From contig CAVTCI010000018.1 in assembly GCA_963733245.1 (NCBI GenBank), positions 19,512-83,511 of the forward strand: a stretch of 64,000 bases of DNA, in the 5' to 3' direction. Under the pieces are notes generated by a model, which ran no database searches, was not told where the DNA came from, and was given only the letters and a program-made list of their open reading frames with translations. A program made the translations under genes and the position numbers. Positions 38,904-45,042 of this stretch are shown piece after piece. The DNA is from an uncultured Solirubrobacterales bacterium (GTDB lineage: Bacteria > Actinomycetota > Thermoleophilia > Solirubrobacterales > Solirubrobacteraceae). The number at the start of each line of letters is the position of its first letter. The first letter of the stretch is position 1.

Positions 38904-41900
38904 GTGATGCTCCCGCTCTTTCGCCAGCTGACCGTCGACCGGCTCGGACGGGGTGCCGCCGTCCGCTCGGAGCGCACCGACGCCATCGTCCCCCGGACGT
39001 CCACGGCCGACCGCGTCGTCCGGTCGGTGTGCCCCTACTGCGCCGTCGGCTGCGGGCAGTCGATCTACGTCAAGGACGAGCAGGTCGTTCACATCGAGGG
39101 CGATCCGGACTCGCCGATCTCCCGCGGGCGCCTCTGCCCTCGGGGTTCGTCCTCGCTCGCCCTGGTCAACTCACCGTCCCGCGAGACGCGGGTCCGCTAC
39201 CGCCGGCCCCACGCGGCCGACTGGGAGGATCTCGAGCTCGACCAGGCGATGGACATGATCGCCGACCGGGTGATCGAGACCCGGCGGCGCACGTGGGAGG
39301 ATCGCGACGCCGGCGGAGCCCGCCTCGCCCGCACCCGCGGCTTCGCCCACCTCGGGGGGGCGACGCTCGACAACGAGGAGAACTACCTGATCAAGAAGTG
39401 CTTCTCGGCCCTCGGCGCCGTGGCGATCGAGAACCAGGCGCGGATATGACACTCGTCCACCGTCCCCGGTCTGGGGACGTCCTTCGGGCGCGGCGGGGCG
39501 ACCAACTACCTCCAGGACCTCCAGAACGCCGACTGCATCCTGATCGAGGGGTCGAACATGGCCGAGTGCCATCCGGTCGGCTTCCAGTGGGTGGTCGAGG
39601 CCAAGGCCCGGGGGGCGAAGGTGATCCACGTCGATCCGCGCTTCAGCCGGACGAGCGCCCTGGCCGACCTCCACGTCCCCCTGCGCACCGGGACCGACAT
39701 CGCCTGGCTCGGCGGGTTGATCAACCACGTCCTGAGCGGGGGCCGGGAGTTTCGCGAGTACGTCCTCCGCTACACCAACGCCGCGACGATCGTCTCCGAG
39801 GAGTTCGTCGACACCGCCGACCTCGACGGCCTCTTCTCGGGCTTCGACCCGGCCGCCGGCAAGTACGACGTCGCGAGCTGGCGCTACGCCGGCATGGAGC
39901 CGCCGGCGGCGGCCGGCGAGGCGAACGATGATCCGTCGGCCGAGCAGGCCCACGGCGCCCACGGCGCCGCGCTCAAGGGGGGCGAGCCGCCGGACAAGGA
40001 TGAGACCCTGACGCACCCGCGGTGCGTCCTTCAGGTGCTGAAGCGCCATTTCAGCCGCTACACGCCGGAGATGGTGGAGCGCGTCTGCGGCGTTCCCCGG
40101 GCGACCTTCCTCGAAGTCGCCGAGGCCATCTGCGCCAACTCGGGGCGCGAGCGGACCACGGCCTTCGTGTACTCGGTCGGCTGGACCCAGCGGACGACCG
40201 GCGTCCAGTACATCCGGGCCGCCTCGATCCTCCAGCTCCTGCTCGGCAACATCGGACGGCCGGGCGGGGGCATTCTCGCCCTCCGCGGGCACGCGTCGAT
40301 CCAGGGCTCGACCGACATCCCCACCCTCTACAACATCCTTCCCGGCTACCTCCCGATGCCCAAGGCCGATCCCGAGCTGACGCTCGAGCGCTACATCGAG
40401 GCGTCGACCGCCCCCGGGGGGTTCTGGGGGCACGCTCGGGAGTACATCGTCTCGCTGTTGAAGGCATGGTGGGGCGATGCGGCCACCGCGGCGAACGACT
40501 ACTGCTTCGATCACCTGCCGCGGATAGACGGCGACCACTCCATCTATCCGACGATCCTCGACATGCGGGACGGCAAGGTCGAGGGTTTCTTCGTGATGGG
40601 CGAGAACCCGGCGGTCGGCTCGGCCAACGCCAAGCTCCACCGCCTGGCCATGGCCAACCTCGACTGGCTGGTCGTCCGCGACTTCCAGATGATCGAGTCG
40701 GCGACCTTCTGGAAGGACGGCCCCGAGGTCGAGACCGGCGAGCTCACCCCGGAGGCCGTAGGTGCGGAGATCTTCTTCCTCCCGGCGGCCGCCCACACCG
40801 AGAAGGACGGCTCCTTCACCAACACCCAGCGGCTCCTCCAATGGCACAACAAGGCGATCGCGCCACCCGGGGACTGCCGCTCGGAGCTCTGGTTCATGTT
40901 CCATCTCGGGCGGCGGATACGGGCCAAGCTCGCTGGGTCCACCGACCCGCGCGACCGGGCGATCCTCGAGCTGACCTGGGACTACCCGGTCCACGGCCCG
41001 ACCGCCGAGCCCGACGCCGAGGCGGTGCTCCGGGAGATCTCCGGCCTCGACGCCGGCGGCCGCGCCCTGTCCGGGTACACCGAGCTCGAGGGCGACGGCT
41101 CGACCGCCTGCGGCTGCTGGATCTACTCGGGGGTCTACGCCGGCGGGGTGAACCAGGCCAACCGGCGCCGGCCCGGACCCGAGCAGGACATGGTCGCGGC
41201 CGAATGGGGCTGGGCCTGGCCGGCCAACCGGCGGATCCTCTACAACCGGGCCTCGGCCGACCCGGACGGTCGCCCCTGGTCGGAGCGCAAGGCCCACGTC
41301 TGGTGGGACGCCGAGGCCGGCCGGTGGACAGGGCGGGACGTCCCCGACTTCGTCGCCGACATGGCTCCGTCCTACCGACCGCCGGAGGGCGCCACGGCCG
41401 AGCGGGCGCTCCGCGGGGACGAGCCGTTCGTGATGCAGGCCGACGGCCGCGGCTGGCTGTTCGCACCGACCGGGCTGACCGACGGACCCCTCCCCACCCA
41501 CTACGAGCCGAAGGAGTCACCCTTCGGCAATGCCTTCCACGGCCAGCGGGCGAACCCGACCCTCGAGGGGTTCCCCCGGCCCGACAACCCGTACCACCCG
41601 GTCGGCGGCGACGTCTTCCCCTACGCGATGTCGACCTACCGGATCGCCGAGCACCACACCGCCGGGGGGATGTCGCGGACGCTGCCCCACCTGGCCGAGC
41701 TCGCCCCCGACATGTTCGTCGAGGTCTCCCCGGCCCTGGCGGCCGAGCGTGGCCTCGACCACAACGGGTGGGCGACGATCATCACCGCCCGGGCGGCGAT
41801 CGAGGCCCGGGTCATGGTCACCGCGCGGATTCCCGACCTCGACGTCGGCGGTCGCCGGATCCATCAGGTCGGCCTGCCCTACCACTGGGGCTGGGGCGGC

Positions 41901-42071
41901 CTGGCCACCGGCGACGCGGCGAACGACCTCCTGCCCCTCGCGCTCGACTCGAACGTGCACATCTCCGAGTTCAAATCGGCCACCTGCGACGTCCGCCCCG
42001 GCCGGCGCCCCCGGGGACCCGGCCTCCTCGCGCTCGTCGAGGAGTACCGGGCCCGCGCCCGTCAGACCTAG
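38904..42071 (+). CDS. formate dehydrogenase alpha subunit (molybdopterin oxidoreductase), selenocysteine-containing
   Basis: ORFs 38904..39449 and 39558..42071 are in the same frame. They are joined across TGA 39447-49 by ...AVAIENQARI-U-HSSTVPGLGTSFGRGGATNYLQDLQNADCILIEGSNMAECHPVGFQW, which parallels E. coli FdnG ...IDNQARVUHGPTV...GRGAMTNHW (from memory). N-terminal 4Fe-4S motif CPYCAVGCG...C. Confidence 0.9.
39447..39479 (+). other. UGA(Sec) codon plus SECIS-like hairpin
   Basis: tga cactcgtccac CGTCCCC ggtct GGGGACG. This is a perfect 7-bp stem starting 11 nt after the UGA, with an apical loop containing GGUC as in E. coli fdhF SECIS (from memory). Confidence 0.7.
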
Positions 42072-42265
42072 CCTCCCGGCCACCCCCGGTGCCGGTCCAC
42101 GCGGGGGCTCACCGGCGGGCACCGCCGACGACGGAGCAAGGTGCCGCGACGACCGGAGCGCGCCGGCGGAACTCCGTGAGCAGGTGGCCTTGGTCCCTCG
42201 GGCAGATGCGCCCGGCTGGCCGGAGCACGCCCCCGGCCAGGCCACCCGTGCGGCGCCTGACGGCC

Positions 42266-42394
42266 GGGGTCGGCTCGGCTGGCGAACCAGCCGGAGGCAG
42301 GGAGCGGCTGCTCCCACTCGTCCGGGTACGCCTCGGCGTCGGAGCGAAGATGACCTTGGGTCCACGGCGCCGTAATCGCGGCCTTGACGTCGTT
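42266..42394 (-). pseudogene. decayed duplicate of the peroxiredoxin 3' end
   Basis: Translation NDVKAAITAPWTQGHLRSDAEAYPDEWEQPLPASGWF compares with the intact Prx NNKVATPAQWTPGDKVIILGSVSDEEAKETYPDGWEQPLPYIRLV. Shared nucleotide blocks: gaaccagccgga, gggagcggctgctcccac, cgtccgggta. Confidence 0.6.
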
Positions 42395-42419
42395 CGTCCT
42401 CAGAGGGCCCGAAAGACGC

Positions 42420-43463
42420 TCAGAAGATCGCGTAGGTTCGGGTGATCCGCCCGAGCGCCCGCCCGAACAGCAGCGCATCCAGTCCCGCCTGGAAGTCGAT
42501 CCCGATGTTCCGGATCGTCTCGAACAGCTCCGACTCATCGCGAGTGTCGAACGACACCGCTTGCAATGCCTCGCGCACTCCACGGTCGCCGATCAGCTCG
42601 AGCCACCGGTCGTAGGCAGCCAGGGCCCGCGCCCCGGCCTCCTCGACTCCGGCGTAGAGGAACGCCGCCGCGAGTCGATCGCTCGGCGCCGCTTCGAACC
42701 ACCGCGTCAGGAAGCCGGACATCTCGACGTCGTCCTTCAAATGGCAGAGCAGCACGGTGACGAGTCCGCCCGCGAACAGCAGCTTCCGCGAGGTGCGGAG
42801 CTTGGCGTTCCGGGTCGCCCACTTCGGATCGTCCCCGCTCCGCGCCCCTTTGCCTTCGAAATCGACGCAGATCGTGCGCCAGTAACGGACGAGGTCGTTG
42901 AGAAGGAACCGCGGCGGTCGGTACGGCTTGACGGCCTTGATGTACCGCGAGAGGACTTCCGCGATCGCTTGACGGCGGACGTCGCCATGCAGCTCTCGCG
43001 ACTCAAGCAAGAGCAGCATCCGCCGCGTCAGGTTCGTGTTGGTGTCGGCGTCGAGGCCGATGTTCTTGACGAGCTCGGTGACATCGAACGCCACGCCGAA
43101 GACATCTTGGGCTCCGGGATGCTGGTCGCCGACCCCCAGCTCGGACGCGGCTGCCGATACCTCGGAGCGAACGTCGGGATCGTCCGTGGCGAACGGGTAG
43201 TCGACGAGAATCGCCCAGTCGTCGTCGCTGCCGTCGGTCAGCTCACCGCGAGCCCACGAGCCGAAGACGCATGTCGAGACACCCGGTCGCGCCGGCCGTA
43301 GATCGAGCGCGGTTCGTGTCTGAGTCGCTCGGCTGTCGGTCCGCACCCGTGCTCCCCGTAGCGCTTCGAAGTCAGCCCCGGTGCGCTCAGCCAGGCGGCT
43401 CAGGGCACCCGAGGGATCGTCTAGGAGGGCGGTGCTTCCAAGATCCATGGAACGTCCGAGCAC
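42420..43463 (-). CDS. nucleotidyltransferase-domain protein (GlnD/DUF294-like Pol-beta fold) with helical C-terminal domain
   Basis: STCVFGSWARGELTDGSDDDWAILVD is a G-S-x-A-R-G-E-x5-S-D-x-D NTase motif. It is followed by NLTRRMLLLLESRELHGD and a helical C-terminus. Start is GTG 43463 or ATG 43448. Confidence 0.7.
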   Translation of the reverse strand: MLGRSMDLGSTALLDDPSGALSRLAERTGADFEALRGARVRTDSRATQTRTALDLRPARPGVSTCVFGSWARGELTDGSDDDWAILVDYPFATDDPDVRSEVSAAASELGVGDQHPGAQDVFGVAFDVTELVKNIGLDADTNTNLTRRMLLLLESRELHGDVRRQAIAEVLSRYIKAVKPYRPPRFLLNDLVRYWRTICVDFEGKGARSGDDPKWATRNAKLRTSRKLLFAGGLVTVLLCHLKDDVEMSGFLTRWFEAAPSDRLAAAFLYAGVEEAGARALAAYDRWLELIGDRGVREALQAVSFDTRDESELFETIRNIGIDFQAGLDALLFGRALGRITRTYAIF

Positions 43464-44074
43464 CGCGCGAGCAGGCCAGCGAAGAGTGCTTCGTCGTCGA
43501 TCGTCAACGGCACGTGGCTGCCCGCCGCATCGAGCGAGCTCAGGTGGACGTGGCTCAGCCGGGTCGCGAACGTCGTGAGGAGCTCCTCGGCCACGCCCAT
43601 GGTCGGGTCGACAGCCTTCGCATGGGCAAGGTCAAGGCATAGCCTGGCCTGCGGCAGCACCTGAAACCGCGGCGCCAGCTGCTTGGCCGTCTGCCCATCA
43701 TCCCTCCGAGAATCCATATTCTCGATGACGAGCCGTCGTCCCAGGGGGGCGTATGCCGCCGGATCCCGCATCGTGTCTGGATGCAGGACGATCGCAGTGA
43801 CCCAAGCCGGAAGGCGCCCAAGACGGGCGACCAACTCGTGATCGGACATCCGCCGGTCCTTAGACGGGCCGTGGACGCTGACGAAGTGGAATGGCAATCG
43901 CGGCGCTCCGGCAACGTAGTCGAGTAGTCCCGGAAGCTCCGGCTCTGACAGCGCGGAGAGTTCGACCGCCGAACTCGACGTCTCGGCCGCGCGTTCGACG
44001 AGGGCGATCCAATCACCGCGGTCATCTACCATGAAGCCCGTCGAGCAGCCCACGACGTTGTGTGCCGCCAGCAC
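43421..44074 (-). CDS. small xylose-isomerase-like / AP-endonuclease-2-family TIM-barrel protein
   Basis: VVGCSTGF...AVELS...FVSVHGP...LVIENM...LCLDLAHA...HVHLSS...ILEAP follows the conserved E/H/E/D-H/H/E strand-end pattern of this fold. The start is uncertain (GTG 44074, 44053, 44104/44107 or TTG 44161). The 3' end overlaps the NTase start by 28-43 nt. Confidence 0.6.
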   Translation of the reverse strand: MLAAHNVVGCSTGFMVDDRGDWIALVERAAETSSSAVELSALSEPELPGLLDYVAGAPRLPFHFVSVHGPSKDRRMSDHELVARLGRLPAWVTAIVLHPDTMRDPAAYAPLGRRLVIENMDSRRDDGQTAKQLAPRFQVLPQARLCLDLAHAKAVDPTMGVAEELLTTFATRLSHVHLSSLDAAGSHVPLTIDDEALFAGLLARCSDVPWILEAPPS

Positions 44075-44268
44075 GAACGAATTCGAATGAAGAAACGACG
44101 GCACCACGCGCGGCCTTAAGCTATCGATCGGGTGCAGGGGTGCCCGCGGTCGGCCCCGCAATGTGCGGCCGATCGACGCCCCCGAGCGATGTCGGACCGT
44201 GGTGTTGAGACGAACATACGTTCGCCAACCATAGCGGCGCCCGCGGACGGCCCGGCTCGCCGCGATCC

Positions 44269-44297
44269 GAGGCCGGCGCTCCGCGAGCGCCGGCCTC
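44269..44297 (-). terminator. hairpin immediately downstream of the peroxiredoxin gene
   Basis: gaggccggcgct ccgcg agcgccggcctc: a perfect 12-bp stem with a 5-nt loop, 16 nt past the prx stop. No U-tract. Confidence 0.55.
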
Positions 44298-44312
44298 GGC
44301 CGAAGCGCCGGA

Positions 44313-44972
44313 TCAGGTCGGCTGGGGAACCAGCCGGATGTAGGGGAGCGGCTGCTCCCACCCGTCCGGGTAGGTCTCCTTCGCCTCCTCGTCGGAGACG
44401 GAGCCGAGGATGATCACCTTGTCGCCCGGCGTCCACTGCGCCGGCGTCGCGACCTTGTTGTTCGCCGTCAGCTGGAGCGAGTCGATGACCCGCAGAACCT
44501 CGTCGAAGTTCCGGCCGGTCGTCATCGGGTAGATGAGGATCAGCTTGATCTTCTTGTCCGGCCCGATCACGAAGACGTTGCGGACGGTGGCGTTGTCGGC
44601 CGGCGTCCGCGAGGTCGCTTCGCCCTCGGTCTCGGCGGGCAGCATGCCGTAGGCCTTGGCGACCGCGAAGTCCTTGTCGCCGATCAGCGGGTAGTTCGGG
44701 GCCGTCCCCTGGGAGCTCTCGATCTCCTGGGACCACCGGTCGTGGTTCTCGACCGGGTCGACCGACAGCCCGATGATCTTCACGCCGCGGCGAGCGAACT
44801 CCGGTTCGATGCTCGCCATGTAGCCGAGCTCGGTCGTGCAGACCGGCGTGAAGTTCCGCGGGTGCGAGAACAGGACGCCCCACGAGTCTCCGAGCCAGTC
44901 GTGGAAGTGGATCGTGCCCTCAGTGGTCTCCGCCTCGAAGTCCGGGGCGGTGTCGCCGAGTTTCAGAGCCAT
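44313..44972 (-). CDS. 1-Cys peroxiredoxin (Prx6 subfamily)
   Basis: Start at ATG 44972 preceded by AAGGAGA (MALKLGDTAPDFEAETTEG...). Active site FTPVCTTELG. Confidence 0.9.
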   Translation of the reverse strand: MALKLGDTAPDFEAETTEGTIHFHDWLGDSWGVLFSHPRNFTPVCTTELGYMASIEPEFARRGVKIIGLSVDPVENHDRWSQEIESSQGTAPNYPLIGDKDFAVAKAYGMLPAETEGEATSRTPADNATVRNVFVIGPDKKIKLILIYPMTTGRNFDEVLRVIDSLQLTANNKVATPAQWTPGDKVIILGSVSDEEAKETYPDGWEQPLPYIRLVPQPT

Positions 44973-45042
44973 GCAATTTCTCCTTTGGTCGAACGCGGTC
45001 TGTCCGACGGCCACTCAGCCTGGACAGAGTCTCCCAGACACT

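Follow-up and report, generated by a model that had tools for sequence, protein, structure and literature searches.

A predicted LexA-controlled M70B–M70A operon between an intact peroxiredoxin gene and a decayed copy of its 3′ end in a Solirubrobacterales bacterium

Introduction

The PDC systems are 145 untested candidates, put forward on the ground that homologues are embedded in BREX, DISARM, or type I restriction-modification (R-M) loci (Payne et al., bioRxiv 10.1101/2024.01.29.577857); one of them, PDC-M70, is listed in the supplement as cassette CAS_00217. Here we describe a PDC-M70 gene pair, M70B and M70A, in a 64-kb stretch of DNA (64,000 nucleotides, hereafter the window; assembly GCA_963733245.1, contig CAVTCI010000018.1, positions 19,512 to 83,511) from a soil actinobacterium of the Solirubrobacterales (Thermoleophilia). 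The pair forms a small island between the peroxiredoxin gene prx and the formate dehydrogenase gene fdh, and a decayed second copy of the prx 3′ end lies behind it. As in PDC-M70, both profiles are matched, the genes are adjacent on the same strand, and distant homologues occur in defense islands; unlike PDC-M70, the pair occurs by itself among housekeeping genes and has a predicted LexA box. No mention of a LexA box for PDC-M70 was found in the searched text of Payne et al., and our search of the literature on PDC-M70, or on any LexA-regulated pair of a nucleotidyltransferase (NTase) and a TIM barrel, gave nothing beyond the PADLOC candidate list.

Several described processes can be compared with this arrangement. 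In E. coli, re-circularized conjugated DNA integrated by a single crossover gives 109–950-bp duplications of the homologous gene end, and homology-facilitated illegitimate recombination (HFIR) mostly gave deletions (PMC3240628). The HFIR literature includes de Vries and Wackernagel (2002) and Prudhomme et al. (2002), both cited in PMC5361080. The island resembles Campbell-type and HFIR products in its order of intact gene, insert, truncated gene end of ~100–200 bp, and native flank; it differs from HFIR proper, which usually yields deletions and not duplications. Integrative islands and prophages that enter the 3′ end of a tRNA or protein gene bring a replacement 3′ end with them and are bounded by attL and attR; they share the duplicated 3′ end, the intact gene, and the empty site in relatives. 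Unlike them, the present locus lacks an integrase and apparently also an identical core, its cargo is only 1.9 kb long, its intact copy is native-type to the last codon, and the same scar is found behind three different genes. In Rhs, CDI, and T6SS effector-immunity arrays, a conserved anchor gene recombines repeatedly, and orphan 3′ fragments end up behind the conflict-system modules that have just arrived (PMC5361080). The window shares such a fragment with the arrays, but in the arrays it comes from the old toxin, the variable end of which is replaced, and in the window from the housekeeping anchor gene itself. Transposons of the DDE or other types differ from the island, which has no transposase, no conserved ends, and a duplication length of 46–190 nt.

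As a gene pair, the island bears a weak likeness to MntA-HepT (type VII), which is also a small, translationally coupled two-gene operon with a minimal NTase. However, the partner in the window is an Endo IV-like TIM barrel and not a HEPN RNase, the gene order is reversed, and M70A is three times larger, with a GlnE/DrrA-like helical domain.

Results

A decayed prx tail marks an insertion scar

On the minus strand, the genes are arranged in the order ppdK, prx, a 205-nt spacer, M70B, M70A, a 16-nt spacer, and a decayed prx tail (the remnant). The stop codon of the convergent fdh gene (42071) lies ~200 nt beyond that tail. The features are given below with the coordinates of the window. Loci of relatives are designated by L numbers; L001 is from the closest species.

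44313-44972, minus strand: prx, intact 1-Cys peroxiredoxin of 219 amino acids; ATG at 44972, reading frame open from a GTG at 45014
44313-44477, minus strand: proximal repeat copy, the last ~55 prx codons and the stop codon, native-type
44108-44312, minus strand: S1, cassette-type sequence 3′ of intact prx (hairpin, SOS box, and promoter region), common to L081
44269-44297, minus strand: hairpin with a 13-bp stem just 3′ of the prx stop codon, the first element of S1
44211-44224, minus strand: predicted LexA (SOS) box CGAACGTATGTTCG, an exact CGAAC-N4-GTTCG, ~104 nt upstream of the M70B start
43421-44107, minus strand: M70B, 228 amino acids, Endo IV/xylose-isomerase-like TIM barrel; GTG start; PADLOC PDC-M70B
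42420-43448, minus strand: M70A, 342 amino acids, NTase (GS...DxD) with a helical C-terminal domain; PADLOC PDC-M70A
42404-42419, minus strand: 16-nt spacer from the M70A stop codon to the start of the remnant, the right-hand insertion junction by sequence
42270-42403, minus strand: distal repeat copy (the remnant), prx codons ~176 to stop, decayed and frameshifted; the former stop codon is now CGA
42207-42269, minus strand: native prx-downstream flank next to the remnant, homologous to L001:8714-8771, just 3′ of the L001 prx stop codon
42072-42199, minus strand: native fdh-downstream flank, homologous to the L001 region just after the fdh stop codon

A preliminary description of the window had claimed that the prx 3′ end recurs as a decayed copy, and the alignment bears this out. 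The segment 44471-44313 (prx codons ~176 to stop) pairs with 42403-42270 at a local score of 99; mononucleotide shuffles scored 22 on average and 37 at most, and 1000 segments drawn at random from the window scored 26 on average and 48 at most. The identity is ~87% across 137 aligned bases, with four to five indels including a frameshift, and the longest identical blocks are ~20–28 nt. An apparent continuation of the repeat for ~60 nt past the prx stop codon was rejected as noise, the two downstream flanks being unrelated (z = −0.2); G+C-rich sequence inflates weak alignments, and the extension is such an artifact. The proximal copy differs from L001 at only three positions across 44313-44477. 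The remnant is now non-functional and decaying. A second prx C-terminus was looked for in 80 related prx loci of other species and found in none. Across 42354-42665, the window agrees without mismatch with an independent Logan contig of run X1.

The sequences that follow the two copies should be noted, since they distinguish the incoming DNA from the resident DNA. S1 behind the intact prx matches the prx-downstream region of L081 (z = 27) and is unrelated to the L001 or L002 flanks. The 62 nt after the remnant match the L001 prx flank (score 52–55, shuffle maximum 38–43, z = 7.9) and do not resemble the sequence behind the intact copy. The 128-nt fdh-downstream flank also matches L001 (score 73, z = 16.7, and a blastn match). 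The homology between the window and L001 ends exactly after the prx stop codon and returns 113 nt past the fdh stop codon, and the homology to L081, L084, and L082 stops 3 nt past the M70A stop codon. Since intact prx is followed by L081-type DNA and the remnant by an L001-type flank, the repeat is a true insertion scar. Judging from these matches, the incoming DNA extends from just after the prx stop codon to 16 nt past the M70A stop codon (42404-44312), and the remnant with the DNA that follows it is the old resident arrangement of prx end, intergenic region, and fdh.

The preliminary description had taken the duplication for the scar of a site-specific integration. A genuine insertion scar around accessory DNA is indeed present, but no recombinase, tRNA, or conserved att-like core accompanies it, and integration by an integrase at a specific site is not supported. 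The same description had found no integrase, excisionase, or tRNA, and we agree: there is no tRNA gene in the 64-kb window and no integrase within ~6 kb on either side of the island, where the flanks are core genes syntenic in three relatives. Profile searches detected no transposase among the island genes, and scans for Rfam families and for consensus promoters and terminators in or near the island gave nothing useful. The hairpin at 44297-44269, formerly regarded as the prx terminator at the island boundary, is real (fold −37.8 kcal/mol, z = −3.3), but it lies in the incoming-type sequence, which L081 has too, with a longer-stemmed counterpart of the hairpin (z = −4.0), and not in the native sequence. 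Homology of this hairpin with an intergenic hairpin in L002 was considered and rejected as not significant (z = 2.4).

The divergence of the remnant is 13–21%. At sites 47, 88, and 89 it has derived states otherwise found only in the L081 prx, including a Glu-to-Ala change of L081 type that is absent from 72 outgroups, and at sites 116 and 152 it has the states common to the window and L001. Such a mosaic could have come from the crossover itself or from gene conversion at a later time. The derived states were also tried as a discriminator between donor and recipient, for which the mosaic pattern gives no decision.

The prx–fdh gap in relatives

The preliminary description proposed that the neighborhood be compared among related genomes, and the comparison reveals an empty site in L002, where the prx stop codon lies ~113–130 bp from the fdh stop codon and the cassette is absent. 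In L001 the gap is 6.5 kb and encodes a 1676-residue PKD/FG-GAP protein and a 663-residue protein. These cargo genes (L001:8679-15201) have a host-like G+C content at third codon positions (GC3), and the 663-residue protein has no Pfam match. The window retains ~62 nt and ~128 nt that are homologous to both outer edges of the L001 block, which was either deleted in the window lineage or inserted in L001.

In L081 and L084, this site is occupied by the same cassette but the remnant is missing, and the M70A stop codon overlaps the end of fdh. In both (L081:9017-9035 and L084:1371-1389), the C-terminus of fdh is altered and six codons longer (...DGRGQNMA, then the stop codon), reading antisense through the M70A stop codon, which suggests a deletion that fused two gene ends. 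A 532-nt contig from soil-metagenome run X3 contains the fdh end, a prx-tail remnant abutting the fdh stop codon, and the end of M70A. It is 5–10% divergent from the window, and no placement was found for its middle ~92 nt even at 80% likeness.

The comparison of L081 with L084 shows how the cassette behaves within this gap. The fdh genes are 94.5% identical (0.875 at third positions) and the M70A genes 83% identical (0.706 at third positions), and the break in identity falls exactly at the M70A/fdh junction. Since M70A is 17% apart and fdh only 5.5%, cassette alleles have been swapped by recombination at the prx–fdh locus. We had considered that the cassette co-diverges with its flanks and withdrew this view, which the L081–L084 comparison contradicts. 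The gap is more aptly called a hot spot of recombination lying between convergent genes, where diverged alleles of the cassette come in, are exchanged, and disappear. The tree of prx is (L002,(L081,(window,L001))) with 97.5% bootstrap support.

The predicted LexA box and the promoter region

The LexA consensus of Gram-positive bacteria and Actinobacteria, CGAAC-N4-GTTCG, is known as the Cheo box, and its mycobacterial form is TCGAAC-N4-GTTCGA. Exact CGAAC-N4-GTTCG boxes are rare in our data, with only 13 in 1.4 Mb of 126 loci, a set that does not include L130. Besides the box in the window, an exact box is located 111–165 nt upstream of M70B in L081, L123, L125, L126, L129, and L130/L131, and L082 has one with a single mismatch; the non-coding sequence around the box is otherwise unrelated among those loci. 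In L039, an exact box also precedes lexA at a distance of 7 nt (L039:6693-6706), and in L130 one (L130:2662-2675) stands 28 nt before a gene for a protein with LexA_DNA_bind and Peptidase_S24 domains. Since the motif equals the LexA box of Gram-positive bacteria and Actinobacteria, the operon is predicted to be LexA-repressed and damage-inducible.

A −10-like hexamer, TATGGT, is found at 44233-44228 beside the predicted LexA box. Another, TAGCTT at 44118-44123, lies 10 nt upstream of the GTG start of M70B, and TANNNT hexamers (TAGCTT, TAGCGT, and TAGGCT) occur ~8–12 nt upstream of M70B in L081, L082, L123, L125, and L126. The position of these hexamers suggests that M70B may have a leaderless transcript besides any that starts from a promoter at the SOS box.

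Two further exact boxes concern prx. One is located 44 nt upstream of the prx reading frame in L019 (L019:7888-7901) and hints that prx may be SOS-regulated in some relatives. The other, at 44795-44808 of the window, is inside the prx coding sequence (IEPEF) and probably occurs by chance.

M70B and M70A

M70A overlaps the 3′ end of M70B by 28 nt on the same strand, and the pair with its short overlap is kept in every related locus having upstream sequence. Both genes are under purifying selection, with 0.85–0.93 identity at codon positions 1 and 2 and 0.67–0.69 at position 3. No conserved third gene follows M70A: the genes behind it in L082, L123, and L125/L126 are unrelated to one another. 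M70A matches PDC-M70A at 9.6e-74 (residues 19-347 on profile positions 6-355 of 355) and M70B matches PDC-M70B at 3.4e-56 (residues 36-244 on profile positions 3-210 of 238). Pfam gives only weak matches for the two proteins, NTP_transf_2 and AP_endonuc_2.

The match of M70B to AP_endonuc_2 (PF01261; 4e-5, 23.8 bits) is under the curated cut-off of 31.1, and many M70B homologues carry a precomputed PF01261 annotation. The AlphaFold2 model of M70B has a pLDDT of 92.9, and its best Foldseek matches are Apn1 and Nfo (10nh, 4k1g, and 2nqh; E 3e-7 to 2e-5). A sequence-only search of the PDB with M70B gave no matches. Among residues of metal-ligand type, His79, Glu129, Asp159, His162, His186, His188, His198, and Asp218 are invariant, and His109, Asp193, and Glu224 are nearly so. 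From the model and these residues, M70B is a putative metal-dependent phosphodiesterase or nuclease.

In M70A (model pLDDT 88.9), Gly63, Ser64, Asp75, and Asp77 of the Pol-beta-type NTase motif are invariant in 58 sequences. The best Foldseek matches are the adenylyltransferase domains of GlnE and the Legionella AMPylase DrrA (3k7d, 1v4a, and 6yx5), with a probability of 1.0 but a TM score of 0.38–0.46 and an identity of 12–15%. A sequence-only PDB search recovers the NTase motif alone, in NTase domains. Weak matches to MntA are also found (NCBIfam, E = 0.0016; low-ranking Foldseek matches 7bxo and 6m6u). Taken as a pair, the two proteins resemble Endo IV (Nfo/Apn1) and GlnE/DrrA in that these are the best structural matches and that the NTase motif and the His/Asp/Glu set are invariant; they differ in that the identity is 12–18%, the TM score is 0.38–0.58, and the Pfam scores are under the curated cut-offs.

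Composition of the island

The preliminary description reported a shift of base composition in the island. In 300-nt windows, the total G+C of the island is 0.64–0.68, against 0.72–0.80 at the fdh 3′ end. However, total G+C fails to delimit the island, because prx and the ppdK 3′ end are equally low (0.65–0.69). The shift is clear in GC3: both island genes have a value of 0.76, while prx has 0.94, fdh 0.95, and ppdK 0.96; the remaining genes of the window have 0.91–0.97, and the island genes are thus 18–20 points under the host level. A lower GC3 is also a constant property of the cassette, 10–20 points under its neighbors in every high-G+C host examined, so that GC3 gives no arrival date. The low GC3 marks an accessory gene set and not a recent arrival.

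The same scar at other cassette sites

At eight loci of the SOS-box subfamily, we compared the 400 nt upstream of the SOS box with the 250 nt downstream of the M70A stop codon, using 3000 matched pairs as controls (maximum 46, 99th percentile 36). Significant direct repeats were found in three of the eight, the window (99), L125 (49), and L130 (40). The two repeats outside the window are as follows.

L125:6067-6169 and L125:8072-8181: direct repeat, cytochrome-c duplication
L130:4164-4210 and L130:6041-6083: direct repeat, integrase duplication

In L125, the last ~40 codons of the upstream cytochrome-c gene recur 43 nt after the M70A stop codon. The upstream copy reads ...AAFVTIASGGK...GRGRGRGRSGRG and the distal copy ...ARFGTTASGGK...GRGRGRGRGRSGEGDG, each ending in a stop codon. 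The distal copy is followed by a hairpin, and the relative L126 shares the downstream genes without those ~340 nt.

L130 and L131 have the order tRNA-Leu, tyrosine integrase, SOS box, M70B, and M70A. The preliminary description suggested that the cassette be sought beside recombinases elsewhere, and here it is found beside one; yet the L130 integrase looks like a target and not an agent of insertion. The sequence SGRRSITTTERHGTS, 3 nt after the M70A stop codon of L130, is identical at 38 of 46 nt to the region of the integrase gene for the catalytic Tyr (LGHRSITTTEEHYGHL).

No conserved terminal sequences or inverted repeats were found at the cassette ends across independent loci. The duplications are 46–190 nt long, against 2–15 nt for the target-site duplications of transposons. 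That three different upstream genes bear the same footprint is hard to square with a model in which the donor must each time have had the cassette behind the gene in question, and it hints that the target may be duplicated when the cassette first inserts.

Genomic contexts of distant pairs

Distant M70B–M70A pairs are found in defense-related or mobile surroundings. One on a Mesorhizobium plasmid adjoins SIR2, 5′-nucleotidase, ThiF, and ImmA/IrrE genes, and one on a Mycobacterium plasmid adjoins a type I R-M system; others are near STAND, Schlafen-like, relaxase, and coupling-protein genes. A search of plasmids gave only five distant matches, and the cassette was absent from the phage records and IMG/VR viral contigs searched. 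Some distant pairs are convergent with operons of Prok-JAB and E2/ThiF (E1-like) genes (L134:6086-8286, L135:2008-4208, and L137:5038-7460), and a ThiF gene alone lies by the pair in L136 (L136:7761-9038) and in L127 (plasmid NZ_CP080530.1; L127:7932-9008). The contexts with Prok-JAB and E2/ThiF recall the ubiquitin-like regulatory modules of type II CBASS.

Neighboring genes

The genes on both sides of the gap are as follows.

47757-45094, minus strand: ppdK, GC3 0.96
38904-42071, plus strand: fdh, formate dehydrogenase alpha subunit, the right border of the variable gap, convergent with prx

The order of CoA-transferase, ppdK, prx, and fdh is kept in L001, L002, and L081. The prx product matches Pfam AhpC-TSA (1.7e-29) and 1-cysPrx_C (5e-12) and has 97% amino acid identity to that of L001 and 90% to those of L002 and L081. 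The fdh product matches Molybdopterin and Molydop_binding, and the gene is syntenic in L001, L002, L081, and L084. An in-frame TGA at 39450-39452 on the plus strand within fdh (motif ENQARI-U-HSS) is very probably a selenocysteine codon, in which case the alpha subunit would be encoded by one gene and not by two reading frames.

Discussion

A proposed origin of the island by a single crossover

The reading that we favor, with a confidence slightly above even, is that an operon of LexA box, M70B, and M70A was inserted into a hot-spot gap, that the prx remnant stems from a single crossover, and that the operon has an SOS-induced function in defense or stress. The topology of intact gene, insert, truncated gene end, and native flank is the product expected from one reciprocal crossover with a circular DNA carrying a prx 3′ fragment. 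A circular or re-circularized DNA bearing such a fragment beside the cassette would have entered the cell, and one reciprocal crossover with the resident prx 3′ end (Campbell-type integration) would have left the remnant. The crossover would have been made by general recombination of the host and not by a dedicated integrase, and the donor may have been a relative that already had the cassette behind prx; a type with the cassette directly behind prx is present in the clade (the L081 type).

Several observations weigh against this reading. The intact prx is of the window/L001 type up to its stop codon, so that a simple homologous crossover would need to fall within the final few bases of the repeat, unless the functional copy was homogenized later; a site-specific crossover at the stop codon fits the native-type intact copy at least as well. 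The Campbell-type route presupposes a donor in which the cassette already follows the same gene, and the duplications in L125 and L130 involve unrelated genes, which argues for a mechanism that duplicates its target at primary insertion. As to timing, the remnant divergence (13–21%) is as large as that of neutral intergenic DNA in a comparison of the window with L001, and the prx tree allows one old gain with later losses. The run X3 contig that bears the remnant is a single low-depth assembly, and the predicted SOS box lies ~100 nt upstream of the M70B start codon. Finally, the function is entirely inferred, and PDC-M70 is an untested candidate.

Alternative origins

The timing could have been different whatever the mechanism. 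A single ancient insertion with duplication in the common ancestor of the window, L001, and L081, followed by vertical descent, is possible, though we consider it unlikely. L001 would then have lost the cassette through recombination of the two prx tails with each other, L081 and L084 would have deleted the remnant, and the window would have deleted the PKD block. The prx tree, which sets the empty L002 outside the other three with 97.5% bootstrap support, is consistent with this history, as is the L001 prx flank, which equals the remnant flank as it would after a deletion between direct repeats. The altered fdh C-terminus of L081 and L084, antisense into M70A, suggests a deletion there, and the remnant divergence is comparable to the intergenic divergence between species. 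However, cassettes that are 17% apart in L081 and L084 beside fdh genes that are 5.5% apart are not simply vertical, and the deletion in these two loci must start within 3 nt of the M70A stop codon.

An integrase is a rather doubtful agent. On this view, a larger integrative element, its attP core matching the stop codon of prx, would have integrated and made attL and attR of the two prx tails; its integrase and everything else but the two cargo genes would have been deleted later. Such an event would explain an intact copy that is fully recipient-type with incoming-type DNA exactly from the stop codon and a remnant followed by the native flank, and it agrees with the empty site in L002. The tyrosine integrase and tRNA-Leu adjoining the cassette in L130/L131 and the relaxase and coupling-protein genes near it in L134 point in the same direction. 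Contrary to this, the window has no integrase, excisionase, or tRNA, L081 and L084 have none either, and no sequence is conserved at the cassette ends across loci. The integrase in L130 has its own 3′ end duplicated behind the cassette and hence looks like a target, and the same scar at prx, cytochrome-c, and integrase genes around the same small cassette is hard to obtain with one attP.

We consider improbable an unrecognized insertion route that duplicates 50–190 nt of its target at each primary insertion. Candidate processes are the capture of DNA at a staggered break with fill-in (nonhomologous end joining type), a template switch during replication, and the action of the cassette's own nuclease and NTase. 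At three independent sites, all in the SOS-box subfamily, the 3′ end of the upstream gene is duplicated just after the M70A stop codon, with the distal copy beginning 3–43 nt behind it. The distal copy in L125 is followed by a native-terminator-like hairpin, and L126 lacks those ~340 nt. These features favor the route. Yet the duplication is present in only three of the eight close loci and is short (46 nt) in one of them, no terminal repeats or conserved cassette ends were found, and M70A resembles protein AMPylases, not polymerases or transposases. The L081-type, donor-like states of the remnant are not predicted by a pure target duplication. To our knowledge, no enzyme family, transposase, or integrase makes target duplications of 50–190 nt, which also counts against the route.

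A bolder and quite improbable form of this idea is that SOS box, M70B, and M70A constitute a self-contained mobile module of a new kind, the Endo IV-like nuclease of which, possibly together with the NTase, would promote insertion at gene ends under SOS induction, with target duplications of 50–190 nt. If so, the long duplications would let the module slip between or into overlapping gene ends without inactivating genes, and the remnants of prx in the window, cytochrome c in L125, and the integrase in L130 would be three footprints of one mechanism.

That the arrangement arose locally, through tandem duplication and deletion with no horizontal transfer, or reflects a chance likeness is scarcely credible: G+C-rich DNA does inflate weak alignments, but the repeat score of 99 far exceeds every control, the flanks of the copies are mutually unrelated and each homologous to a different relative, the enclosed genes are 18–20 points under the host in GC3, and the gap varies among species, so that this explanation is effectively refuted by the repeat score, the GC3, and the flank homologies.

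Possible function

By analogy with the known systems and contexts above, the cassette may be a defense or stress module and is a candidate anti-phage system. LexA would repress the operon, and DNA damage or an SOS response triggered by a phage would induce it. M70B, as the effector, would then cut a nucleic acid or another phosphodiester substrate, and M70A may nucleotidylylate a partner, possibly M70B itself, as in the MNT-HEPN pairs of type VII.

Implications

The island is of an ordinary kind, a small defense-type islet at a gene end that belongs to an existing candidate family. The additions that are worth following are the predicted LexA control, the swapping of alleles at a fixed hot spot, and the recurrent long flanking duplication. 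For PDC-M70, the locus adds predicted LexA control, partners that are Endo IV-like and AMPylase-like, and allele swapping at a hot spot. It also provides a natural example of how a recombinase-less, defense-type operon enters a compact, high-G+C genome between convergent housekeeping genes with neither of them damaged, and the footprint left behind tells the incoming DNA from the resident DNA. If the recurrent long duplication holds in a larger survey, it would point to a route of insertion beyond the known transposases and integrases.

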